The position numbers were made by a program, and so were the translations under genes. A DNA stretch of 31,353 nt from a virus: positions 1 to 31,353 of the IMG/VR virus record IMGVR_UViG_3300031920_000321, one strand, 5' to 3'. The notes beneath the pieces are model-generated. The model was not told where the DNA came from and made no database searches. It saw only the letters and a program-made list of their open reading frames with translations. Below are positions 655 through 31,353 of the stretch, piece after piece (position 1 is the stretch's first letter; each line of letters begins with the position of its first letter).

Positions 655-683
655 ATTATAGCATTATTTTTTGACATTGCCTA
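655..683 (-). promoter_or_regulatory. Conserved 29-nt promoter-like motif, copy 1 (minus strand: TAGGCA-N17-TATAAT)
   Basis: Plus-strand ATTATA GCATTATTTTTTGACAT TGCCTA aligns with copies at 1565-1593 and 30852-30880. The conserved block is exactly hexamer-17-hexamer on the minus strand. It lies upstream of the 131-aa ORF. The plus strand also reads TTGACA(671-676)-N17-TTTAAT(694-699). Confidence 0.4.
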
Positions 684-879: not shown

Positions 880-1310
880 TATTTGCGCTCTGAGAGGCAC
901 AAAGTTCTTCAAAAGCCTGTCTATTGTTATAGAGTAGTCTCTCTGACTAGGTCCTATGTTTCCATTGTCTCTTGGTAGGATACTATCTGCTTCTTCCCAG
1001 AGTCCATTACTGAACTTCCGTTAGATATTACCTCGTTGATGAGGGTATGGGATAATCTTATTCCTTAAGCAGAATTAGTCTTAAAGAAATAAGTAGTCTG
1101 TTTGGATTACGGTTATTCATTGGCAACTTTTGCCCTCCGCTTCGGCGGTGGATATATTGGCTTCCACCCAGCAATCCTATCGTATCATCCTATCTTGCGA
1201 CAGCTCATCTTTCGATGATTTACTAATACGACCAGTCCATAGAATTTAACAGGCATCTAGTAGAGGCTTCTATAGTTCGCCTGACCGTATCCACTAGGTT
1301 TTTGTTTGTT
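880..1310. ncRNA. Candidate large structured non-coding RNA of unknown class; strand unresolved
   Basis: No ORF of 60 aa or more on either strand. GC content is much higher than in the flanks (29 G+C in 1141-1200 versus 10 in 601-660, hand counted). Several compact hairpins are present. These are TAGTC-TCTCT-GACTA (935-949), GGCA-ACTTT-TGCC (1122-1134) and CCUCCGC-UUCG-GCGGUGG (1134-1151, a C(UUCG)G tetraloop on +). A fourth, TCATC-TTTC-GATGA (1205-1218), gives a GAAA tetraloop on the minus strand. Confidence 0.35.
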
Positions 1311-1314
1311 CAAT

Positions 1315-1437
1315 AAAAAAACTCTTTATTCGATTTTGGCTTTGATAGTGAAACGCAACCAGATGTTTCATTAACCAAAACCGAATAAAAAGTTCTTTCT
1401 GGTTGCTTTGTATAGTCGCTATCAAACGATGTTTTTT
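1315..1437. terminator. Two overlapping, mutually exclusive long hairpins flanked by A7 and T6 runs; candidate back-to-back intrinsic terminators or an RNA switch
   Basis: Fold 1 pairs 1325-1339 with 1375-1389 (15 positions; the one mismatch becomes G-U on the minus strand). It has an inner stem TGAAAC/GTTTCA (1349-1354/1365-1370) and is preceded on + by A7 (1315-1321), which is U7 after the hairpin on the minus strand. Fold 2 pairs 1341-1351 with 1416-1426 (11 bp, one G-U on +) and 1355-1362 with 1399-1406 (8 bp perfect). It is followed by T6 (1432-1437). Confidence 0.4.
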
Positions 1438-1564
1438 CATTTCTATATATTCATTATACTTATAAATAAAAATCTGTCAAGTTTTATAAATATACTTCAA
1501 TAAACATTGAAAATATTTATTGAGATGATTTACAAAAAGATATACCAAATCTTTTATTACTTAT

Positions 1565-1593
1565 AGTATAGACTTTTTTTTTGACCTTGGCAA
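1565..1593 (-). promoter_or_regulatory. Conserved 29-nt promoter-like motif, copy 2 (minus strand: TTGCCA-N17-TATACT)
   Basis: Plus-strand AGTATA GACTTTTTTTTTGACCT TGGCAA aligns with the other two copies. It points leftward into the hairpin complex and the GC-rich block. Confidence 0.4.
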
Positions 1594-1689: not shown

Positions 1690-1718
1690 TTGACAGTGTT
1701 TTTAATACCTGATATACT
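1690..1718 (+). promoter_or_regulatory. Sigma70-like promoter of the plus-strand operon
   Basis: TTGACA (1690-1695), a 17-nt spacer ending in TGa (extended -10), then TATACT (1713-1718). It sits about 58 nt upstream of the first plus-strand ORF (1776). Confidence 0.55.
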
Positions 1719-1775: not shown

Positions 1776-1922
1776 ATGAAAAAAACAATTAAAATATTTT
1801 TCACAGATGAAACTTTGCATTTGAAATTCAAAATAAAATGCACTGAAGATCAAATAGGTATGAGCGATAAAATTAAAGAACTCATAACAGAATATGTTAA
1901 TAGAAAAAGAATTAAAAAATAA
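1776..1922 (+). CDS. Small ribbon-helix-helix-like (CopG/Arc-type) protein, 48 aa
   Basis: Hand translation gives MKKTIKIFFTDETLHLKFKIKCTEDQIGMSDKIKELITEYVNRKRIKK. The pattern is beta-strand then two helices. GGAAGG lies 10 nt upstream of the ATG. It is the first gene after the strong promoter. It is below the ORF-track size cut-off. Confidence 0.45.
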   Translation: MKKTIKIFFTDETLHLKFKIKCTEDQIGMSDKIKELITEYVNRKRIKK

Positions 1923-1932
1923 ATAAATTAGT

Positions 1933-2808
1933 ATGATACTAAAAAAGATTAAAAAAAAGATCTTACAAAAATTATGGATTTGGTGGATAAACGAAGATGA
2001 TGGCTGGAATTTAAGGGGCACAGGAAAACTTGAAGAAATAGAAAAATATCTTTTTCCTAATATGACATTAAAACAAATTAAAACAGGAGACAATTTACTT
2101 TTGACTGGCAATAAAGGTTACATCGGAAAATATCTACAGGAAAGATTACAGCGTGATGGTATTGATAAAGTTGATGGCTACGATGCATGTGATATTAAAG
2201 AAAAAACAAATTTGATTTATCATCTCGCCGCTCAAACATCTGTTCAGAAATCTTTTGAAAATCCAGAACAAGATTTAAGAGACAATGTTCTATCAACTAT
2301 AAATGTATTAAAATATTGTAATAAAATAATTTTTACTTCAAGTGCCGTTGTTTATGGAGATAGACTCAACGCCAAAGAAACAGATCCAACAAATCCACAA
2401 AGTCCTTATGCCATTAGCAAACTAGCTGCAGAACAATATATTATAAATTCAGGAATTGATTATGTTATATTAAGATTAGGAAATGTTTATGGCAGAAAAA
2501 ACAATAAAGGAGTCTTTAAGGCATTAAGAGAAGATGGACTAATAAACGGAAACGGAGAAAATACTAGAGATTATGTTTATATAGATAATGTTGTTGACGC
2601 ATTAATATCGGCAAAAGATTGGGATAATGGAATTTATAATATTGGCACAGGAATTGCGACTTCCGTAAATACAATTGCTAATATATTAGGCGTAAAAAAG
2701 AATTACACTAATGCAGTCAAAGAACAAAAATATATTAGCTTAGATATAACGAAGGCAAGAGAACAAAATTTTAATCCAGCATCTTTACAAAACAATTATG
2801 ATAACTAA
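1933..2808 (+). CDS. NAD-dependent nucleotide-sugar epimerase/dehydratase (extended SDR family)
   Basis: Rossmann motif LLTGNKGYIGKYL and catalytic YxxxK (YAISKLAAE), with an overall SDR layout. The true start may be the internal ATG at 2062 (MTLKQIK...). Confidence 0.8.
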   Translation: MILKKIKKKILQKLWIWWINEDDGWNLRGTGKLEEIEKYLFPNMTLKQIKTGDNLLLTGNKGYIGKYLQERLQRDGIDKVDGYDACDIKEKTNLIYHLAAQTSVQKSFENPEQDLRDNVLSTINVLKYCNKIIFTSSAVVYGDRLNAKETDPTNPQSPYAISKLAAEQYIINSGIDYVILRLGNVYGRKNNKGVFKALREDGLINGNGENTRDYVYIDNVVDALISAKDWDNGIYNIGTGIATSVNTIANILGVKKNYTNAVKEQKYISLDITKAREQNFNPASLQNNYDN

Positions 2809-3391
2809 TTGGCAAAAAGCACAAAAATGGGAAAAGGAATGGCATTTTTCTTCCCAATTTAATCTTTATAACGAAGAAACAAAACAATATATCTATGCTT
2901 CTAAAATGGGGTTGGATAGATATAAGACAAATTATTTTAATCAAATTGGTTGGGACTTTGGTGATAAAAAAGTAATAGACATTGGTGGTGGAGAACAATC
3001 AATCTTGTTAAAGTCAAAAGCAAAAGAAAGAGTTGTTATTGATCCATTGCCTTATGCTAGGTGGATAAATATAAGATATATTGAGGCAGGAATAGAATTT
3101 AAACAAATAAAAGCAGAAGAATTAACTGTTGGGAAATATGACATAGCATTGATTTATAATGTATTGCAACATACTGAAGATCCTGCAAAGATTATAGAGA
3201 ATGTTAAAAAAATAAGTAAAGAAATCCATATCTTTGAATGGGTAGATACAGGAATATCAGAAGGACATATTCATAATTTGACAGAAGTAAAATTAAACGA
3301 CTGGTTAAACGGAGAAGGAAAAGTTGAAAATATTAATCAATATCCGTGTGTAAGCAAGGCTTATTATGGAATATTTAAAGGAAAAATATGA
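2798..3391 (+). CDS. Class I SAM-dependent methyltransferase
   Basis: Motif I VIDIGGGEQS and a later DIALIYNVLQHTEDP segment. It overlaps the previous stop and the next start (ATGA at 3388-3391). Confidence 0.7.
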   Translation: MITNWQKAQKWEKEWHFSSQFNLYNEETKQYIYASKMGLDRYKTNYFNQIGWDFGDKKVIDIGGGEQSILLKSKAKERVVIDPLPYARWINIRYIEAGIEFKQIKAEELTVGKYDIALIYNVLQHTEDPAKIIENVKKISKEIHIFEWVDTGISEGHIHNLTEVKLNDWLNGEGKVENINQYPCVSKAYYGIFKGKI

Positions 3392-4587
3392 AAAAATTTA
3401 GATTTCATTTACTCTCATTAGTTCATCTTCCACAAAGCACAGAATATATGTCTTGTGCTTTTACCCAGAAAAATCTTAAACTTTCGAAGATGTTAACTTC
3501 ACTCGGTCATACAGTTTACTTTTATGGTAGTGAAGGAAGTAATGTTGCAGAATATTGCAATAGCAAAAATTTAAAATTTATTGAAACACATAAATTAACT
3601 GACATCAGAAAAGATTATGGAACTGGAGATAATAGATTTGAAATAGGTTATGATTGGCATAGTACTGATTTCAAACACGACTTCAATTCTAAAAGAAATT
3701 TATCAACTCTGAAATATTATGCTAAATGTATTGAGCATATAAATAAAATTAAAAAACCTGATGATTTTCTTCTATGCACACAAGGATCATATTTACGACC
3801 GATTGCAGACGCTGTTAAGTTATATTTGACTTGCGAACCAGGTGTAGGATACAGAGGAAGCTATATGAAGTTTAGAGCATTTGAAAGTAGCTATATTCAG
3901 AATTTTACATACGGTTCAGAACATCCAAGACAATGCTCAAATGGTAATTTCTATGACAGGGTAATTCCAAATTATTTTGATCCAGATGACATAACATATT
4001 CTGATAAAAAAGAAGATTATTATTTCTTTATCGGTAGAATGATTAGTAGAAAAGGAATTATGATTGCATATAAAGCCTGCAAAGCAATCGGAAAGAAACT
4101 TATAATTGCGGGGCAAGGCGGAATTATTCAAGCAGATGGAAGTTTAGTTGGTCAATACAATGATTTTAGAATGCCAAAAGGAAATTGGGAATATGTCGGA
4201 TTTGTAAATGTTGAGCAACGGAAAAAACTAATGTCTAAAGCAATAGCAACATTTGTTCCGACTGTATATTTAGAATGTTTTGCTGGAACACATATTGAAA
4301 GTATGTTAGCAGGAACTCCTCCTATTACTACTGATTTCGGAGTTTTCCCAGGAACTATTCCAAATATATTAAATGGTAGAATAGGATTTAGATGTAATAC
4401 TCTTCAGGACTTTGTAGATGCTGCGAAGAAAGCACAAGATGTAAATCATATAGAAGTACGAAAATATGGAGAAAGATTCTTAATGGATAATGTAAAATTA
4501 GAATTTCAAAAATGGTTTGAAGATTTAATGAATGTTTATGAAAGTGTTGTAGATACAAAAAAGAAAGGTTGGCATAATATTAAATAA
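3388..4587 (+). CDS. GT-B fold glycosyltransferase (GT4/GT1-like)
   Basis: C-terminal domain motifs FFIGRMISRKGI...LIIAG and an E-x7-E-like LECFAGTHIESMLAGTPPITTDFG. Confidence 0.75.
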   Translation: MKKFRFHLLSLVHLPQSTEYMSCAFTQKNLKLSKMLTSLGHTVYFYGSEGSNVAEYCNSKNLKFIETHKLTDIRKDYGTGDNRFEIGYDWHSTDFKHDFNSKRNLSTLKYYAKCIEHINKIKKPDDFLLCTQGSYLRPIADAVKLYLTCEPGVGYRGSYMKFRAFESSYIQNFTYGSEHPRQCSNGNFYDRVIPNYFDPDDITYSDKKEDYYFFIGRMISRKGIMIAYKACKAIGKKLIIAGQGGIIQADGSLVGQYNDFRMPKGNWEYVGFVNVEQRKKLMSKAIATFVPTVYLECFAGTHIESMLAGTPPITTDFGVFPGTIPNILNGRIGFRCNTLQDFVDAAKKAQDVNHIEVRKYGERFLMDNVKLEFQKWFEDLMNVYESVVDTKKKGWHNIK

Positions 4588-4607
4588 AAGTCGACAAATT
4601 TAACCAA
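4581..4607 (+). repeat. Left copy of a 27-nt direct repeat bracketing the HNH gene
   Basis: TAAATAAAAGTCGACAAATTTAACCAA matches TAAATAAAAGTCGAAAAATTTAATCAA at 5152-5178 in 25 of 27 positions. Each copy begins at or overlaps the stop codon of the preceding gene. Confidence 0.85.
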
Positions 4608-4680
4608 AAAAATTAACAAAAAATAATATTACTTAACCAAAATGTTTTTAAAACAGGTTTAAATTATTAACCTGTTTAAT

Positions 4681-5154
4681 ATGAACATAAAAAATAATGG
4701 GGAGAAAAAGTTTAAAATCTGTATGAAATGTAAATGTAAGAAAGTCGCCGATTTAATAAATTTTAAATCACACAAAGAAACGAAAGACGGATTATCAAGC
4801 TGGTGTAGAAAGTGTAAGCAGAAAACAGATAGAATATATAGTAGAAAATATAGATTAGAACATCCTGAATGGAAGAAAATGGACAATAAAAGGAATTTAC
4901 CATTGCAAAAAAAATTAATAAAAGAATATCAAAAGAAATTTCCAGAAAGAGTAAGTGCAAATGCAAAAGCGGGTAGGGCAAAAAGAAGCGGTAAACTCAA
5001 ACAAGAATGTTGTATTGTCTGCGGTTCTGAAAAAAGTGTAATGCATCATTCCGACTATACTAAACCTTGTGAAGTTGTTTGGTTGTGTCATTTACATCAC
5101 AAACAACTTCACGCAGGAATTATTGTCTTGGAAAAAATACAACAACAAGTTTAA
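4681..5154 (+). CDS. HNH endonuclease with an N-terminal Cys-rich zinc-finger region
   Basis: C-terminal CIVCGS...HHSDYTKP...VWLCHLHHKQLH (HNH/CCHH pattern). N-terminal CMKCKC...DGLSSWCRKCK. Confidence 0.7.
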   Translation: MNIKNNGEKKFKICMKCKCKKVADLINFKSHKETKDGLSSWCRKCKQKTDRIYSRKYRLEHPEWKKMDNKRNLPLQKKLIKEYQKKFPERVSANAKAGRAKRSGKLKQECCIVCGSEKSVMHHSDYTKPCEVVWLCHLHHKQLHAGIIVLEKIQQQV

Positions 5155-5178
5155 ATAAAAGTCGAAAAATTTAATCAA
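5152..5178 (+). repeat. Right copy of the 27-nt direct repeat bracketing the HNH gene
   Basis: See 4581-4607. Confidence 0.85.
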
Positions 5179-5192
5179 TCTTAACAATAAAT

Positions 5193-5300
5193 ATGAATAT
5201 CTTATGCTTGATTGGACTACATAAATGGAAAATGACAAAAACTTTTTTACTGTGGAGATGCGAAAGTTGTGGAAAGGAAAAAGAAGATATTTGGTTTTAA
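5193..5300 (+). CDS. Small Cys/His zinc-ribbon-like protein, 35 aa
   Basis: Hand translation gives MNILCLIGLHKWKMTKTFLLWRCESCGKEKEDIWF. The C..G.HKW ... C..CG pattern is reminiscent of small prophage proteins. Below the ORF-track cut-off. Confidence 0.4.
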   Translation: MNILCLIGLHKWKMTKTFLLWRCESCGKEKEDIWF

Positions 5301-5321
5301 TCAATCACTAATAAAAAAATT

Positions 5322-5438
5322 ATGACTAAAGAAGAATACACCGAAGCAACATACGAAAAAGTCATGGAGTTGCTTACAAAAATAGATAAGGAAATGTTGA
5401 CGAAAGATGAGTTCAAAAAAAGGAATCGATATAATTGA
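5322..5438 (+). CDS. Small hypothetical protein, 38 aa
   Basis: Hand translation gives MTKEEYTEATYEKVMELLTKIDKEMLTKDEFKKRNRYN. It fills an otherwise empty gap. It is preceded by the same TTTAATCAATC motif found before the 5193 ORF. Confidence 0.3.
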   Translation: MTKEEYTEATYEKVMELLTKIDKEMLTKDEFKKRNRYN

Positions 5439-5475
5439 TCAACAGATTATTATGAAAAAAATATAAGTTGATAAA

Positions 5476-5507
5476 GCCAGAATCGTCAATATTTGAGCGA
5501 TTCTGGC
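5476..5507. other. Perfect 10-bp inverted repeat with a 12-nt loop
   Basis: GCCAGAATCG (5476-5485) pairs with CGATTCTGGC (5498-5507). It is unusually GC-rich for this region. No adjacent T-run. Confidence 0.6.
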
Positions 5508-5555
5508 GAATTAAACAGTGTCAGAATAGTATTAACTATTTTAATAAACGATAAT

Positions 5556-5714
5556 ATGAAAACACAAGAAAACAAATATGAAATACTAATAAAAGTTGGA
5601 CCATATAATGCAGAAATGGTTGTAATTAAAGCATGGTCAGAGGCTGAAGCACTAAAAAAAGCAGAAAAACGATACCCTGCTTCTTATAAAGTACTTTCTA
5701 CTAAACTTAATTAA
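5556..5714 (+). CDS. Hypothetical protein (52 aa from the ATG at 5556)
   Basis: The tracked ORF 5493..5714 starts at a TTG inside the inverted repeat, so the internal ATG (MKTQENKYEIL...) is preferred. No family recognised. Confidence 0.45.
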   Translation: MKTQENKYEILIKVGPYNAEMVVIKAWSEAEALKKAEKRYPASYKVLSTKLN

Positions 5715-5729
5715 ATTAACAAAAAATAT

Positions 5730-6128
5730 ATGCACATAATAGATATTATTGTCGTAATAACTCTAATAACATTAACAATTACTACGGCAGTACAACTAGA
5801 AGAAAATAAAGAATTAAGAAACTCAATAGCCACTCAACCAGAAATAGTTAAAATTGTGAATGAAGAAATTTCTTTTACAGACTCAATTCAATATAAATCT
5901 ATACAAGATGAATTAAAAACAAAGAATAAAATTATTGAACTTGATAATAAGATATTTGTTCAGCATCAAAAAGAACTTGAATATTATGGTGATTACATTG
6001 TAGCTATTCTCAAAGGAAATGATCGTGATAAAAGATTGCTACGAAAAGAAGTTTTAAAAGCTGGTGAAGAAATACAAGAAATACAAAAAGAATTAGATAA
6101 ATTAACTAATCTTAGAAAGGAATTATAA
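5730..6128 (+). CDS. N-terminally membrane-anchored coiled-coil protein
   Basis: Hydrophobic N-terminus IIDIIVVITLITLTITTAV followed by a charged, heptad-like sequence. Confidence 0.55.
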   Translation: MHIIDIIVVITLITLTITTAVQLEENKELRNSIATQPEIVKIVNEEISFTDSIQYKSIQDELKTKNKIIELDNKIFVQHQKELEYYGDYIVAILKGNDRDKRLLRKEVLKAGEEIQEIQKELDKLTNLRKEL

Positions 6129-6129
6129 T

Positions 6130-6414
6130 ATGTCAAATAAAAACGCATTTGATGAAAATCTACGTAAATTAGAAGAAGAATCTGATAGACGAATGGACTT
6201 ATACTTTGACAAACAATTACTGATAAATGTTAAAAAACAAGATAATTCAATTAAACAAGCGATTAATGATCTTGTTTATGAACTCAACTCATTTGTCACA
6301 GATGCTTTCTATTTAGTTCAAATTATTATACTTGTAGCAATACTTATTATTGTTTGCATTGTCATTCCAGTTATATTGGTATTGTTTATTTTTCCCCAAT
6401 TAACTCATCAATAG
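6130..6414 (+). CDS. C-terminally membrane-anchored (tail-anchored) coiled-coil protein
   Basis: Charged N-terminal half, then FYLVQIIILVAILIIVCIVIPVILVLFIF. The start lies 1 nt after the previous stop. Its 3' end overlaps the convergent 586-aa ORF by 29 nt. Confidence 0.55.
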   Translation: MSNKNAFDENLRKLEEESDRRMDLYFDKQLLINVKKQDNSIKQAINDLVYELNSFVTDAFYLVQIIILVAILIIVCIVIPVILVLFIFPQLTHQ

Positions 6415-10743: not shown

Positions 10744-13700
10744 TTATATTGCTAATAAATTTTCTATTATTTCAAATCTTTCATCTGAAATATTTAATCT
10801 TTGTTCTAAAGTCTTAATATCTTTTTTATATTTATCAACAAGTTCTATCAACTCTTGGACAGCACTAACGGTTACACCAATTGTTCTTGTTAATTCTATG
10901 TCTTTTTCCCCAGTGTCTTTATCTGTCATTTTCATTTCATCAGGAAACTCATCTATTTCAAAGTAATGTCTTTTACCAGAATGATAATTCTTTCCTTCTT
11001 TTATTTTTGATTTCTTTATTTTTTTAAATATATCTATTCCTTTCTCAACAGTAGGCAATGCACAACCAAGATAATTATCTGAGTGGACTGCATACCATGC
11101 AATTCCTGTATATCCGAGTCGATATGTACTATCAGCAGTTGGTTGTAAGTCATCATTTATTCTAAAAACAGTTCCATCATGTCTAAAACTTTGAGATGTT
11201 CCATTCCAATAAATATATTGACCACTATCCATATAAAGATTTTGATCAAGATAAAGATGTCTCCACTTAAATGATGAATCGCCCAGGTCTTTTGCATTTG
11301 CAGCACTCGGCCTCCATTCTCCACCAACTACACCTCCTCCGTCTATATAAGATACTCCCGATAAATATATATTCCCAAACTTGTAAGAAGATGACCCTAA
11401 ATTGTAACCGTAACTCGTGCAATAATATGCGTCTGATTTAAAATAATGACTCGCTGTATTTGTATACATATACAGACCATCAGAAATTCCATACAAATAA
11501 TTCATCGTCCCGCCAGTCGGAGAATTGAAATAAAAAGTAGCAGTAGTTATTTGTATTCGTTCGTGATTACTACTATCATATACTCTTATAAAACCAGCTC
11601 CAACATACACCCTCGCACCTGAGGATGCAGTCTGATATAGTCCACCAGTAATCGTAACACCTGTAATTGACACACCGCTTATATCTCCACCATTTATTCT
11701 TGCAGCGTTCATAGTTCCTGCTGTAATTTTAGTAGCACTTAAACTTCCAATCTGTGCATCGGTGATTGTAGCATTCGCAATCTTCCCACTAGTAATTGTA
11801 AGATTAGATATTTGCGAAGCAGTAATTGTAAGATTTGCAATTTTGCTTGCTGTGATTGTTGTATTTGCTATATTTGTAGCTGTAATTGTGCTTGATGCAA
11901 TATCTGTACCAGTAATAGTAGCATTAGTGATATTTGTGCCAGTAATTGTACCTGAAGCTATTTGACTTCCTGTTATCGACGCTGATCCACTTATTTGAGT
12001 TGTAGTGATTGTTGCATTGGCTATCTGCGTAGCAGTTATTGTTGTGTTTGCTATATTAGATCCAGCTATCGTAGCAGAAGCAATTTGTGTGCCAGTAATT
12101 CCAGCAGTTGAACTTATTTGTGTTGTGGTTATAGATGCATTGGCTATTTCTGTTGCTGTTATAGTATTATTAACTATATTACTTGCTGCTATTGTTGTTG
12201 CGGCAATCTCTGTTCCAGTAATTGTGGCATTAGCTATTTGACCTGCTTGAATTGTATTATTTGCAATGTTGCTTCCTTCAATAGTAGTTGCAGCAATATT
12301 AGCACCTGTAATTGTTGCTGCTGCAATCTGGTCGCCACTAACATCTGTTGCATTCCAAATCAATTTATGAATACCTGCTGTATTTGTAGCAACTAAGACG
12401 TCTTCATTCGCTAAAGTAGGTAATGTTGCAGATTTTTGAAAAGTCGTTGTACTTAATGAAAAATCCCACCAAATATATTTTAAATTTGTATTGCTATTTG
12501 TTATTGTGTATGTAGTGCCATTATAATCAACAGTAACATCTGACCAAGCAACTGAACTACCGTCTGGTGAATCATCAGTAAATGTACCACTGATTACAAT
12601 AAGAGGTAATGATACTTTTCCAATAGTAATAGTGTTATTAGTAATGTTATCACCTGTGATAGTAGCAGAAGCAATTTCAGAACCTGTGATAGTAGCAGAA
12701 GCAATTTGAGTAGCAGTAATTGTATTATTGATAAGATTACCACCTGCAATAGTAGAATTTGCAATTAAAGCACCAGTTATCGCTGCTAATGCAATTTGAG
12801 TTGCACCAATAGTATTATTAACAAGATTTCCACCTGTTATAGTTGTATTAGCAATTTGTGAACCTACTATTCCAGCTGCATTAGCTAATTGACTACCAGT
12901 AATAGCAGCGGTGGCTGAAATATTTGTGGCAATAATAGTAGCATTTGCTATTTGTGTAGTAGTAATCGCACCATTTCCGATTTGCGTTGCGGTGATAGTT
13001 GCGTTTGCGATGTTTGCTGCTTCAATTGTAGTACCAGCTATTTGAGTCCCCGTGATGGTAGCATTTGCAATCTGACCTCCTGTAATTCCTGCTGTATTAC
13101 TTATTTGAGTAGCGGTAATTGTCGCATTGGTTATATTCCCAGCATCTATTGTCGTAGCAGCAATCTGTGCACCTGTAATGGTAGCGTTTACAATATTTCC
13201 AGCTTCTATAGTAGTAGCCCCGATATTGCTTCCTGCAATAGTAGCATTGGCAATCTGCGTTCCCGTAATACCAGCAGTGCCACTAATTTGAGCAGATGTT
13301 ATAGTTGCGTTTGCAATTTCTGTTGCTGTAATAGTCGCAGTTGCTATCTGTGAAGCTGTAATAGTAGAATTAACAATATTTCCTGCCTCTATTGTAGCAC
13401 TAGCGATATTAGATCCAGCAATAGTTGCATTAGCGATTTGAGTTCCTGTTATAGTAGCATTAGCTATTTCATTGGCTGTTATGGTCGCAGCAGTTATGTT
13501 TGTAGCTGTAATGGTTGCATTTGCAATTTGAGTACCAGTTATTGTAGCAGATGCAATTTCAGCTGCGGTAATTGTAGCACCTACTATATTATCATTAGTA
13601 ATTGTGTTATCTTCTATGTCATTACCAGTGACACTAACACCACCTTCATTTTGCATTACACTCCAAGAAGATGGAAGAATTAACTCATCCATCAAAGGTG

Positions 13701-13749
13701 CATCAACAATATCTTTCTTATATAATATATCAATCTTTACGTTTGCCAT
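10744..13749 (-). CDS. Tail fibre/spike protein (1001 aa) with two long pentapeptide-like repeat blocks and a C-terminal chaperone-like coiled coil
   Basis: Ile/Leu/Val occurs every fifth residue over residues ~46-376 and ~473-700 (units such as ATITG-TQIAN). A ~95-aa insert lies between the blocks. Fibre-type motifs LGSSSYKFGNIYL and DLGDSSFKWRHLYL follow. The C-terminal ~110 aa end in a heptad-like helix. Confidence 0.8.
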   Translation of the reverse strand: MANVKIDILYKKDIVDAPLMDELILPSSWSVMQNEGGVSVTGNDIEDNTITNDNIVGATITAAEIASATITGTQIANATITATNITAATITANEIANATITGTQIANATIAGSNIASATIEAGNIVNSTITASQIATATITATEIANATITSAQISGTAGITGTQIANATIAGSNIGATTIEAGNIVNATITGAQIAATTIDAGNITNATITATQISNTAGITGGQIANATITGTQIAGTTIEAANIANATITATQIGNGAITTTQIANATIIATNISATAAITGSQLANAAGIVGSQIANTTITGGNLVNNTIGATQIALAAITGALIANSTIAGGNLINNTITATQIASATITGSEIASATITGDNITNNTITIGKVSLPLIVISGTFTDDSPDGSSVAWSDVTVDYNGTTYTITNSNTNLKYIWWDFSLSTTTFQKSATLPTLANEDVLVATNTAGIHKLIWNATDVSGDQIAAATITGANIAATTIEGSNIANNTIQAGQIANATITGTEIAATTIAASNIVNNTITATEIANASITTTQISSTAGITGTQIASATIAGSNIANTTITATQIANATITTTQISGSASITGSQIASGTITGTNITNATITGTDIASSTITATNIANTTITASKIANLTITASQISNLTITSGKIANATITDAQIGSLSATKITAGTMNAARINGGDISGVSITGVTITGGLYQTASSGARVYVGAGFIRVYDSSNHERIQITTATFYFNSPTGGTMNYLYGISDGLYMYTNTASHYFKSDAYYCTSYGYNLGSSSYKFGNIYLSGVSYIDGGGVVGGEWRPSAANAKDLGDSSFKWRHLYLDQNLYMDSGQYIYWNGTSQSFRHDGTVFRINDDLQPTADSTYRLGYTGIAWYAVHSDNYLGCALPTVEKGIDIFKKIKKSKIKEGKNYHSGKRHYFEIDEFPDEMKMTDKDTGEKDIELTRTIGVTVSAVQELIELVDKYKKDIKTLEQRLNISDERFEIIENLLAI
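11650..13626 (-). repeat. Coding tandem repeats of period 15/30 nt (pentad repeats of the fibre), interrupted at 12334-12621
   Basis: Coordinates derived from residue numbering of the 1001-aa ORF. The repeats generate several spurious Cys/Ile-rich ORFs on the opposite strand. Confidence 0.8.
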
Positions 13750-16853: not shown

Positions 16854-18104
<1,251 letters not shown>

Positions 18105-18127
18105 ATTTGTAAGTTATTTATTATTTG

Positions 18128-18198
18128 CAGTAAGGAAAGGGATCGAACCTTTGTCTTTCGTTTTGGAGACGAATATTCTACCATTAAAATACCAAACT
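18128..18198 (-). tRNA. tRNA-Trp (anticodon CCA)-like gene with an imperfect acceptor stem
   Basis: The hand-folded cloverleaf has these parts. T arm AAAGG-UUCGAUC-CCUUU. Anticodon arm UUCGU-CUCCAAA-ACGAA. D loop AAUGGUA with a 3-bp stem. U8 and G73. Acceptor AGUUUGG/CCUUACU pairs at 5 of 7 positions, with U-U mismatches at 4:69 and 5:68. No encoded CCA. Confidence 0.55.
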
Positions 18199-28522: not shown

Positions 28523-29836
28523 TTAAAGGTCTAAAAATTCGGAGCTCTCTTCATCGTAATTAAATCGTACTGAATCCATTTTATCATCATCTTGGAATAA
28601 CTCACCAGCGAATTCAGAACTTTTCTTTTTAACAAATGGCACTTTACTTCCTAAATCCCAGACTGAAAGTGCTGCGGACATTATACAATCATCATGTATT
28701 CCTTCAGGTACCTGTATCTTTATTTTACCATTCTTACCTAATACATATTGCATACTTCTCATTTCATCTAATAGAATAGGATTATTCGGTAAAAGTATTT
28801 CTCTATTCTGTATTTTAATTGCAAGATTCTGTAGTAATGGTTCTCTGGAAGCAGAAGTAAATGTAAATGGTTGAACATTAATATGTTCTCTTTTCTTTAA
28901 ATCATCGTATATTGGTTCTCCTAATCCTGTATTATCTACTAATAGTAAATGCTGTTTATATAATTTAGTATAAGCTTCAATCTTTTGCTTTTGATATGAC
29001 CATTCTAATTGATTGAATCTTAATGGATGTCCTATTTTCCAATTATGTCTATCACAAGGTGTTAATACTGTCCAATCATTATGTTTACCAAGATCACATC
29101 CAATTTGATAAAACCTTTCATCATTAGGTGTTAAATTTCCATCCCATAAAACATTATCTATACCTGCAAAGAATTGACCAGCACCTTCAAGGAATTCACA
29201 GTAATATTCTTGCATGAAGAATGCTTGAGGAGTAGTTCTTCTAGCTTCTTCTAATTCTTCTGTGCTAATAATTCCAGTGTCTTCTACAGTCTTAATTGAT
29301 GTCCACCAATTAGGATTACCTTTTGCTTGTTGTAAGAGCTTCCATGAGTGATTTCTTCCCTTTGGTGTATATATAAATGTTGCGGACCCTTTATTAGCTC
29401 GGAGAACTGGTTGAATAACTGATGTCCAAATTTGTTCATTCATTTCAGAGTATTCATCAAACACTACATCTATTGGACCAGCTCCTCTATGACTATCAAT
29501 ATTTTCAGCACCTAAGAATCTTTGTATACTTCCATTTTTCCAATAAATAGCTAATTCACTATCATTTAATTTATGGACTAATTGCATTGGAACATGTTTC
29601 TTTACCAGAACATCCCACATAACTCTTTTTGCCTGAGTATAAGTCGGTAAAAAATAATAATAAACATTAGGTGTTGTCACTGCTTTCCTTATCTGTTCGT
29701 TCAGAGCTACTGTCGACTTCCCCGCCCTTCTGTGAAACACTGCTATCTTGTATCTTGCTTTGCTCTGTAGAAACTCCAGTTGGTGAGGTCTCGGTTGGAA
29801 CTTGTATGGTATCGTTATTTGCATATTGGATAACAT
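28523..29836 (-). CDS. terL: Terminase large subunit
   Basis: Walker A FHRRAGKST, Walker B-like IDVVFDEYSEM, and C-terminal nuclease-type acidic motifs (LLLVDNTGLGEP, GIHDDCIMSAA). Confidence 0.9.
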   Translation of the reverse strand: MLSNMQITIPYKFQPRPHQLEFLQSKARYKIAVFHRRAGKSTVALNEQIRKAVTTPNVYYYFLPTYTQAKRVMWDVLVKKHVPMQLVHKLNDSELAIYWKNGSIQRFLGAENIDSHRGAGPIDVVFDEYSEMNEQIWTSVIQPVLRANKGSATFIYTPKGRNHSWKLLQQAKGNPNWWTSIKTVEDTGIISTEELEEARRTTPQAFFMQEYYCEFLEGAGQFFAGIDNVLWDGNLTPNDERFYQIGCDLGKHNDWTVLTPCDRHNWKIGHPLRFNQLEWSYQKQKIEAYTKLYKQHLLLVDNTGLGEPIYDDLKKREHINVQPFTFTSASREPLLQNLAIKIQNREILLPNNPILLDEMRSMQYVLGKNGKIKIQVPEGIHDDCIMSAALSVWDLGSKVPFVKKKSSEFAGELFQDDDKMDSVRFNYDEESSEFLDL

Positions 29837-30239
29837 TAATTTTTAATGGATCTCCATTTGGATCAGCATGTCTTTCATCCTTAGCATCACGGTAATCGTG
29901 TTTTGTCAACATTAGCTTTGTAATAGCAGAATTGAAATCTCCTCTTAATCCGTTAGAAATAAGAACTTTTGCTTGCTTTACTTTAATTTTTTCAAAGATG
30001 TGTAAAAACTCAACATTTTTTTCATCATTAGCCCAATTATAAAGAGTCTTTCTGGATACATCTAAATAATATGCGAGTCCTTCAATGCTAGGAATTATAT
30101 CGTCCTTATCTAAGTTTTGCCAATTCTCTAAATAATACCTGGATGACAAAACTACCTCTGGAGTTAGTCCATAAGGTCTGCCTTCTGGATTTTTATCGGG
30201 AGTTTCTTTTGAATTTTTATCTGGTGTTTTTTTTTCCAT
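29667..30239 (-). CDS. terS: Terminase small subunit (HTH DNA-binding N-terminal domain)
   Basis: The GRPYGLTPE...IPSIEGLAYYLDVSRKTLYNWA...NGLRGDFNSAITKLMLTKHDYRD pattern is typical of gp3-like small terminases. It lies directly upstream of terL. Its low-complexity C-terminal 56 aa overlap terL out of frame. Confidence 0.7.
   Translation of the reverse strand: MEKKTPDKNSKETPDKNPEGRPYGLTPEVVLSSRYYLENWQNLDKDDIIPSIEGLAYYLDVSRKTLYNWANDEKNVEFLHIFEKIKVKQAKVLISNGLRGDFNSAITKLMLTKHDYRDAKDERHADPNGDPLKINVIQYANNDTIQVPTETSPTGVSTEQSKIQDSSVSQKGGEVDSSSERTDKESSDNT
30185..30232. repeat. 48-nt exact repeat shared with 8-55 and 31306-31353 (5' coding ends of the two terS paralogues)
   Basis: Base-by-base comparison: identical from CTGGATTTTTATC through CTGGTGTTTTTT. 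Confidence 0.9.
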
Positions 30240-30851: not shown

Positions 30852-30880
30852 ATTATAAACTTTTTTTTTGACATTGTCTA
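30852..30880 (-). promoter_or_regulatory. Conserved 29-nt promoter-like motif, copy 3 (minus strand: TAGACA-N17-TATAAT), upstream of holin and the late operon
   Basis: Plus-strand ATTATA AACTTTTTTTTTGACAT TGTCTA. The -10 lies about 27 nt upstream of the holin ATG (30825). Confidence 0.45.
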
Positions 30881-31003: not shown

Positions 31004-31353
31004 TCAATTTGCATCTCTATAATCGTGTTTAGTCAACATCAATTTAGTAATAGTGCTATTATATTCTCCTTTTATTCCATTATTGATGAGTTCCCTTCCT
31101 TGCATAGACATTAATTTTTCATAGATGTCTATGTATTCTTGAGAACTTTTTTCCTTAGCCCATTTATGTAAAGTGCTTCTACCAACTTCTGCAAATACTG
31201 ATAGTCCTTCAATGGTTGGAAAAACATCTCCTAATTCTTTGTATTGCATCAAATAAGCCTTTGCTGTAGCTAAAAACTCTGGTGTTAGTCCACTTGGCCT
31301 ACCCACTGGATTTTTATCGGGAGTTTCTTTTGAATTTTTATCTGGTGTTTTTT
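31004..31353 (-). CDS. Truncated TerS-like HTH paralogue (3' part; the start codon lies across the junction at 65..63)
   Basis: GRPSGLTPEF...FPTIEGLSVFAEVGRSTLHKWA...NGIKGEYNSTITKLMLTKHDYRDAN then a stop. It is colinear with residues 1-120 of TerS but ends right after the shared KHDYRDA motif. Confidence 0.65.
   Translation of the reverse strand, partial: KTPDKNSKETPDKNPVGRPSGLTPEFLATAKAYLMQYKELGDVFPTIEGLSVFAEVGRSTLHKWAKEKSSQEYIDIYEKLMSMQGRELINNGIKGEYNSTITKLMLTKHDYRDAN
31299..31353. repeat. Terminal overlap identical to 1-55
   Basis: See 1-55. Confidence 0.9.

Follow-up and report, generated by a model that had tools for sequence, protein, structure and literature searches.

A G+C-enriched non-coding block in the genome of an uncultured phage, probably a minus-strand RNA cassette of predicted structure behind a conserved attenuator-like hairpin

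The window analysed here is the whole 31,353-nt stretch of the IMG/VR virus record IMGVR_UViG_3300031920_000321. It represents a complete circular genome of ~31.3 kb with 32% G+C, and an exact 55-bp terminal overlap closes the circle. Most genes lie on the minus strand, including those for the small (TerS) and large (TerL) terminase, the portal, the major head protein and an SU10-type adaptor as well as tail fibres, a holin and several glycosyltransferases; the plus-strand arm is short (1776-6414) and encodes a 48-aa ParG/RHH-like protein, an epimerase, a methyltransferase-like protein, a glycosyltransferase and an endonuclease. The block at 880-1310 that is the subject of this work lies within the divergent region separating the two arms. 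TerL is at most 29% identical to that of any isolate, and among GenBank phages there was no nucleotide match to 480-1780 by blastn or to the first 12 kb by megablast; judged by its sequence, the phage belongs to an uncultured lineage without a close isolate.

Several parts of the genome carry repeats. A truncated second copy of the small terminase, comprising its N-terminal two-thirds, is located directly behind a 131-aa gene (minus strand, 3-65 plus 31010-31351, against 29667-30239), the first 55-77 nt of the copies are 90-95% identical, and the circular closure of the contig falls within this repeat. The 1001-aa protein encoded at 10744-13749 on the minus strand has 30-nt (10-residue) periodic repeats, and a 416-aa tail fibre with collagen-like repeats (16854-18104, minus strand) forms the G+C maximum of the genome. 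The sole tRNA gene in the window, a tRNA-Trp (CCA) detected by ARAGORN at 18127-18198 on the minus strand, is located between the adaptor gene and this tail-fibre gene, ~17 kb from the block. In the plus-strand arm, the 291-aa epimerase ORF (1933-2808) has an N terminus that is ~50 residues longer than in all homologues, which are 237-254 aa in length and cover ~80% of the query; the true start is probably near 2090, and this would open a further short gap behind the 48-aa gene.

No replication, recombination, integration or repressor gene was recognised across the circular 31.3-kb genome, in line with a sequence-only reading of this DNA that had remarked on the lack of recognisable replication genes. 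In relatives of ~43 kb (L052, L054), the same sugar-modification trio stands at the end of a long early arm that also encodes RusA and an RNase T-like exonuclease, and the 31.3-kb genome may be reduced or helper-dependent.

The block has a G+C content of 41.1% compared to 22.7% in 488-879 and 25.2% in 1311-1775, and the counts that had first singled it out, 29/60 G+C at 1141-1200 against 10/60 at 601-660, are correct. Only 3.2% of equal-sized windows of the genome are as G+C-rich, and the richest all lie in the collagen-like repeat gene (~17000-17600). We count 41% G+C amid non-coding flanks of 23-25%, in a genome of 32%, in favour of selection or recent arrival. The surrounding region is ORF-poor, as had been noted: no ORF of at least 60 aa starts within 488-1775, the longest being 48 aa, and the right edge is touched only by the tail of a spurious 117-aa minus-strand ORF (1758-2111). 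By a stop-to-stop criterion, 635-1293 is the only long ORF-free stretch of the genome, and all 33 related loci lack such a stretch.

All six frames of the block contain 6-10 stop codons of mixed type, close to the ~9 of our own estimate for random sequence with the same composition. Its period-3 signal is 0.23 vs a minimum of 3.19 among 37 coding windows, and its codon-usage log-odds are below zero in six of six frames. The six-frame translation has no similarity at E<=10 among 5.8 billion proteins, a search that also sought spurious ORFs called over homologous blocks, and the translated block has no similarity in the relatives or in the rest of its own genome. A decayed protein-coding remnant, which the sequence-only reading had set against an RNA, is ruled out by the lack of an open frame, of periodicity, of a codon signal and of translated similarity. 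The block is a real, non-coding and compositionally anomalous orphan.

Two lineages are close enough for comparison, L032/L033 and L044/L045. L032/L033 are 84% identical to the window at the nucleotide level over the packaging genes and have the 131-aa gene in common up to its start codon (window 488), beyond which different genes follow. L044/L045 have the plus-strand arm and the large minus-strand genes in common with the window at ~73-76% identity. The minus-strand order in L044 is a tRNA-Met, a long hairpin with a U-run, a 109-aa HTH_36/DnaD_N-like gene and three 25-bp iterons. The homology between the window and L044 stops right behind the U-tract, at the 1311/1310 junction, and the block starts at the next base. 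Because of these two breakpoints, with L044 at 1311/1310 and with L032/L033 at 488, 489-1310 is a segment found in this genome alone, and the block fills the slot that in L044 holds the HTH_36 gene and the iterons. No sequence or translated similarity was found between the block and the L044 gene or iterons. In L044 itself, 205-325 carries the three 25-bp iterons (GGTAAACCCTAGTTTAC...) and two copies of TTAGATTTAGTTA immediately behind the HTH_36/DnaD_N-like gene, an arrangement that makes this stretch a probable origin or operator region. The neighbourhood of the block shows signs of recent rearrangement in the form of copies of the TerS 5' part and of promoters with 75-95% identity.

The hairpin that precedes the slot is conserved. 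In the window it comprises a 27-bp stem (1315-1399, minus strand; homologue at 698-791 in L044) followed by a U7 tract (1311-1317, minus strand), the last bases common to L044. Relative to shuffled sequences its stability has a z of -5.0 in the window and -6.2 in L044. The energy is -34.0 kcal/mol on the minus strand and -23.2 kcal/mol on the plus strand; the advantage of 10.8 kcal/mol for minus-strand RNA arises from the three mismatches between the arms, all of which become G.U pairs there and are A.C on the plus strand. The outer stem and its flanks are identical in the two genomes (CAAAGAACUUUUU ... AAAGAGUUUUUU), and the inner stem differs with complementarity kept.

The segment next to the 5' base of the stem can, in either genome, also pair with the apical loop. 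In the window, segment A (GCAACCAGA, 1398-1406, minus strand) pairs with the hairpin apex at 1355-1363 in an alternative (antiterminator) helix; the apex, segment C (UCUGGUUGC ... CUAUCAAA, 1342-1363, minus strand), is the partner both of segment A and of 1419-1426 (UUUGAUAG), such that GCAACCAGA pairs with UCUGGUUGC and UUUGAUAG with CUAUCAAA. The L044 counterpart is a helix of 14 bp between GUAAAUUACAAAGA and UUUUUGUAAUUUAU, within an element at 698-800 of L044. The sequences of the alternative helices are wholly different between the two genomes and the topology is the same. In both, the alternative helix is part of the minimum free energy (MFE) fold of the nascent transcript, which in the window amounts to -21.7 kcal/mol. 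The terminator fold and the alternative helix are mutually exclusive, and this is the arrangement of a terminator/antiterminator attenuator. We suggest that 1311-1426 is a two-state element of this type, conserved between two genomes and with putative termination activity. Long stems can serve as sites of RNase III processing and, being unusually long (~27 bp) and AT-rich, the stem could also serve as an RNase III site.

Promoter-like sequences flank this element. A sigma-70 promoter with a 12/12 match to the consensus (TTGACA-N16-TATAAT, 1453-1480, minus strand) points towards the switch and the block, and a second promoter, P_b (TTGCCA-N17-TATACT, 1565-1593, minus strand), also lies ahead of the switch. 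P_b has the same motif as P_a (TAGGCA-N17-TATAAT with TG in front, 655-683, minus strand), the promoter for the 131-aa gene, and P_c (30852-30880, minus strand) upstream of the holin gene: T-W-G-N-C-A, a spacer with GTCAAAAAA and then TATAAT or TATACT, which suggests a phage-specific promoter class. In the opposite direction, TTGACA-N17-TATACT with TG in front (11/12; 1690-1718, plus strand) is the promoter for the 48-aa gene and the sugar-modification arm. No promoter belonging to the block itself was found by the promoter scan. Motifs facing the block from both sides had been proposed, TTGACA-N17-TTTAAT at 671-699 on the plus strand and TTGCCA-N17-TATACT at 1593 to 1565 on the minus strand. 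Both coordinates are correct and the minus-strand motif holds up, but the plus-strand one has a -10 hexamer without the conserved A at position 2 and was not listed by the scan; judged by sequence, the overlapping 655-683 is more convincing as a promoter that serves the 131-aa gene on the minus strand. Between the block and P_a, the AT-rich spacer contains a 23-codon minus-strand ORF (741-812) for the hydrophobic peptide MTELVILVFVVCFFHVLNQCHSK; it could be a chance ORF or a small membrane peptide.

Several known RNA families had been named for a check of the block, namely ROOL, GOLLD, HEARO, OLE, group I/II introns and RNase P. A covariance-model scan with Rfam 15 matched none of them: the whole window is empty at gathering score, and 450-1800 is empty even at E<=10. 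The covariance model of GOLLD is unmatched at both levels, and so is that of ROOL, which captures conserved multistem junctions and pseudoknots. The block further differs from ROOL in length (~430 nt vs ~581 nt) and in lying ~17 kb from the only tRNA gene of the window. Group I/II introns left no Rfam match, and there are no ORF fragments flanking the block in any frame; tRNA, tmRNA and RNase P were not detected at the block by ARAGORN or Rfam. As far as these tools show, the empty Rfam, ARAGORN, protein and codon results exclude ROOL, GOLLD, introns, RNase P, tmRNA and a decayed gene. A tRNA remnant or attP site was rejected on finding no 10-mer common to the block and the L044 tRNA-Met or the window tRNA-Trp and no integrase, a MITE or other repeat element on finding no terminal inverted repeats around the block and no second copy in the genome, and a DGR template on finding neither a repeat copy nor a reverse transcriptase. 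A cos site was rejected on the type of TerS, which is that of P22 gp3 (PF16677 in L032) and which is associated with headful packaging.

Homologues of the block were equally elusive. They are absent by blastn and nhmmer from all 55 fetched loci, and the 31 distant IMG/VR loci that carry relatives of the 131-aa protein all lack the block, as does L032/L033, the one close relative to which this protein led. A blastn search of PLSDB plasmids with 860-1460 was empty. Five exact words from different parts of the block retrieved no homologue from IMG/VR; one 19-mer gave 7 chance matches in GC-rich contigs of the JGI metagenomes, a collection that does not include the window's own contig, with no extended similarity; and one 20-mer gave a single chance match in GTDB genomes. 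These large collections were scanned by exact words only, a procedure that homologues below ~90% identity would escape. The 48-aa and 291-aa proteins have no IMG/VR matches; homologues of the 291-aa protein in a large collection led to L044/L045, which are syntenic, and also to L042, L043 and L046-L055, where the context is different. The sequence-only reading had taken a lack of conservation in relatives as evidence against a structured RNA. Such conservation is lacking: L032/L033 and L044/L045 are without the block, all homologue searches are empty, and no helix inside the block has covariation or comparative support because no homologue was recovered.

Folded as a whole, the block has a z of -2.56 as minus-strand RNA and of 0.0 as plus-strand RNA. 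Among control windows from the same genome, 4/94 fold better than the minus strand of the block (mean -0.41, sd 1.31), which places it at the ~5th percentile; the hairpin density named in the earlier description is only modestly above chance. For the minus strand, sliding windows of 120 nt give a negative z throughout 840-1360; for the plus strand, z stays near zero. The best z of the 94 controls, -4.26, belongs to a 440-nt window from 5281 on the minus strand, which overlaps most of the gap at 5154-5730; this gap was rejected as a second non-coding block and instead contains ORFs of 35, 38 and 73 aa and a short G+C-rich hairpin at ~5478-5510.

Three minus-strand hairpins in the block are capped by GNRA tetraloops: UCAUC-GAAA-GAUGA (1205-1218) with a pair probability of 0.97, CUGUC-GCAA-GAUAG (1190-1203), which adjoins it and has one G.U pair that becomes an A.C mismatch when read on the plus strand, and AGUUCA-GUAA-UGGACU (1001-1016) with a pair probability of 0.88. 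These 3 compare with 0.3 in shuffles (P=0.004) and with a genome-wide rate of 0.47 per equal length, and the plus strand of the block has 0. On the plus strand, CCGC-UUCG-GCGG at 1137-1148 occurs 1 time vs 0.09 expected (P=0.088) and presents a CGAA loop on the minus strand. Both special-loop hairpins in the earlier description, C(UUCG)G at 1137-1148 on the plus strand and the GAAA loop at 1218 to 1205 on the minus strand, are confirmed. Among the unpaired positions of the block, A makes up 57% when the minus strand is folded, and U makes up 49% when the plus strand is folded. In folded RNA, A-rich unpaired and G/C-rich paired positions are typical; an excess of GNRA loops and A-rich unpaired bases, both features of structured RNA, are present here on the minus strand. 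In both G/C and A/T skew the block agrees with the minus-strand genes, and the cumulative skew has its turning point at ~1450-1550. The numbers of G.U pairs are near-equal between the strands (12 vs 11). The strand had previously been left unassigned; based on fold z, GNRA hairpins, A-rich unpaired bases, promoters and skew, the minus strand is the most likely one. Of the original proposal of a large structured RNA, the non-coding character, the anomalous composition and the folding signs in a single sequence have stood, but not membership of a known family or conservation.

Combining these data, we suggest, with a probability of roughly 0.45, that the block is a lineage-specific structured minus-strand RNA of ~430 nt that is made by read-through of the switch. 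In this model, the perfect sigma-70 promoter (1480 to 1453), perhaps together with the phage-type P_b (1593 to 1565), would initiate transcription. Once the transcript reaches the switch, the long hairpin and U7 would form and transcription would end at ~1311; alternatively, segment A would pair with segment C, no terminator would form, and the polymerase would continue into the block, the RNA of which would fold into a multi-helix body with three GNRA-capped hairpins. In L044, the same switch would govern the small HTH_36/DnaD-like DNA-binding gene, behind which the iterons follow. Because the same switch lies before this gene in L044, the block would be what this regulatory slot delivers here, in place of the replication or regulatory protein that it holds elsewhere. 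The data show the non-coding nature and composition of the block, the breakpoints, the conservation and covariation of the switch and the strand indicators; we infer all three of switch read-through, a stable folded block RNA and a function of the block, and we lean towards a regulatory or replication-linked RNA that would act at the stage where relatives use the HTH_36 protein. Against the minus-strand RNA we count the lack of homologues and of covariation for any helix inside the block, the absence of the block from the nearest relatives, the fold z at only the ~5th percentile and the near-equal G.U counts. We also count that the block, for which no promoter of its own was found, lies downstream of an apparent strong terminator such that expression hinges on the putative read-through, that the UUCG hairpin favours the plus strand, and that recent rearrangement nearby means that the block could be debris.

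This last possibility would make the block functionless filler, i.e. foreign or scrambled non-coding DNA from the module swap in which the HTH_36 gene and the iterons were lost, still present only on account of its recent arrival and either passively transcribed or silent. A block that is unique to one genome between sharp homology breakpoints, adjoins recent rearrangements (the TerS 5' part and the promoter copies), lacks a homologue in any search made, has an unexceptional fold z and has the stop-codon density of random sequence is what filler would look like. Neutral DNA at this position should, however, drift to the 18-25% G+C of the adjacent spacers, and the distribution of bases between paired and unpaired positions, the enrichment of GNRA hairpins on a single strand and a purine skew like that of transcribed minus-strand genes all argue against filler, as does the precise placement of the block in an expressed slot behind a conserved switch. 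On balance, we consider filler, the main rival reading, rather unlikely.

Quite unlikely is a protein-independent, transcription-dependent origin, in which a primer or R-loop RNA from the block replaces the initiator-plus-iteron module of the relatives. An origin or primer-RNA role had been raised in the sequence-only reading, and what speaks for it is circumstantial: the block lies in the slot of the L044 HTH_36/DnaD_N-like gene and its 3 x 25-bp iterons, no replication protein is recognised in a genome whose 43-kb relatives have the early arm with RusA and the exonuclease, a perfect promoter lies 140-600 nt upstream, and the cumulative GC skew turns close by. Conversely, a replication protein could hide among the many unannotated proteins of the window, the L044 HTH_36 protein may be a regulator and not an initiator, and the skew turn is explained equally by the switch in gene orientation. 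The terminator between promoter and block and the mixed G/C skew inside the block also count against an RNA origin. A DNA-level signature of an origin was not found: the block has no direct repeats or iterons and no AT-rich unwinding element, and DnaA boxes in the window number 9 vs 12.5 expected, with no clustering. An iteron or DnaA-box origin at the block was accordingly rejected for want of a DnaA-box cluster and of iterons. One perfect DnaA-box consensus, TTATCCACA, is located at 1628-1636 on the plus strand between the divergent promoters, and L032 has two 8-of-9 DnaA boxes, at 9-17 and 167-175, upstream of its HTH-like gene. A bolder version, in which the block founds a new class of large phage RNAs and functionally replaces protein initiator and iterons as an attenuator-switched RNA origin or replication control, we hold to be distinctly improbable; if true, a 31-kb tailed-phage genome without replication genes of its own could propagate.

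The block could also be transcribed on the opposite strand, from the site at 671-699 to the long hairpin acting bidirectionally, with C(UUCG)G as its hallmark. The TTGACA-N17-TTTAAT motif, the cUUCGg hairpin at 1137-1148 (P=0.088) and, on the plus strand, an A-run before and a U-rich run after the long hairpin are compatible with such an RNA, which is nevertheless very unlikely given a fold z of 0.0, no GNRA loops and U-rich unpaired positions on this strand, a long hairpin that is 10.8 kcal/mol weaker with three A.C mismatches, the defective -10 hexamer at 671-699 that the scan did not list, and a skew in keeping with the minus-strand compartment. The idea that the block is a gene in decay, or has diverged from a known RNA family (ROOL, GOLLD, group I/II intron, RNase P, tmRNA), can be dismissed as extremely improbable because, in spite of a size and phage context like those of large phage-borne RNAs (PMC5737381) and a G+C content near that of coding DNA in the genome, there is no Rfam match at E<=10, no tRNA or tmRNA, no frame with similarity to a protein, neither periodicity nor a codon signal, and no interrupted ORF on either side of the block.

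Returning to the structured minus-strand RNA as the preferred reading, the closest points of reference are the large non-coding RNAs ROOL and GOLLD, which are often borne by phages or prophages, often lie near tRNA genes and are possibly co-transcribed with them; the average length of ROOL is 581 nt and GOLLD is longer (PMC5737381). The block resembles these RNAs in a predicted multi-helix fold with GNRA loops and in having no known function, and the slot in L044 is directly downstream of a tRNA-Met. The block is shorter (~430 nt), neither covariance model matches, there is no homologue family or consensus structure, and in the window the nearest tRNA gene is ~17 kb away.

The likeness to the leader attenuators of bacteria and phages concerns 1311-1426 and not the block. 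This element has the stem-loop with U-tract and the exclusive upstream helix, predicted to form first in the nascent RNA, and compensatory sequence replacement between the window and L044 has preserved both helices. It differs in its unusually long, AT-rich stem and in showing no recognisable leader-peptide logic, T-box or riboswitch aptamer (Rfam, E<=10 over 450-1800).

In ColE1, RNA II, and at oriF/oriG of phage T4, a transcript forms a primer or an R-loop, and replication is RNA-primed and independent of an initiator. The hallmarks of a ColE1-like origin are a pre-primer RNA that stays hybridised and is processed by RNase H, and an antisense RNA for copy control. The locus described here parallels these systems in that a strong constitutive promoter lies a few hundred nt upstream of a candidate structured non-coding region, that the genome has no recognisable initiator, and that the position is that of the initiator-plus-iteron module in L044. 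However, the block has no sequence similarity to them, and a terminator intervenes. The nearest counterpart by position is the L044 HTH_36/DnaD_N-like gene with its iterons, which occupies the same slot behind the conserved hairpin on the minus strand and is similar in size (~400 bp vs 430 bp) but has 28.5% G+C vs 41% for the block, which in turn has no ORF and no repeats.

We conclude that the block is probably a minus-strand RNA cassette of predicted structure and inferred function that lies behind a conserved attenuator and outside every known family. If the block is recombination debris, it is a caution that a structured RNA should not be called in an AT-rich genome from G+C enrichment and a few special tetraloops alone. 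The conserved two-state hairpin is a small testable regulatory element in its own right. If the block is a functional RNA, it would represent a new large structured RNA from an uncultured phage lineage and a concrete case in which an RNA cassette has been exchanged for a protein module, i.e. a DnaD-like protein with its iterons, and would point to a possible route to protein-independent replication or regulation in phages.
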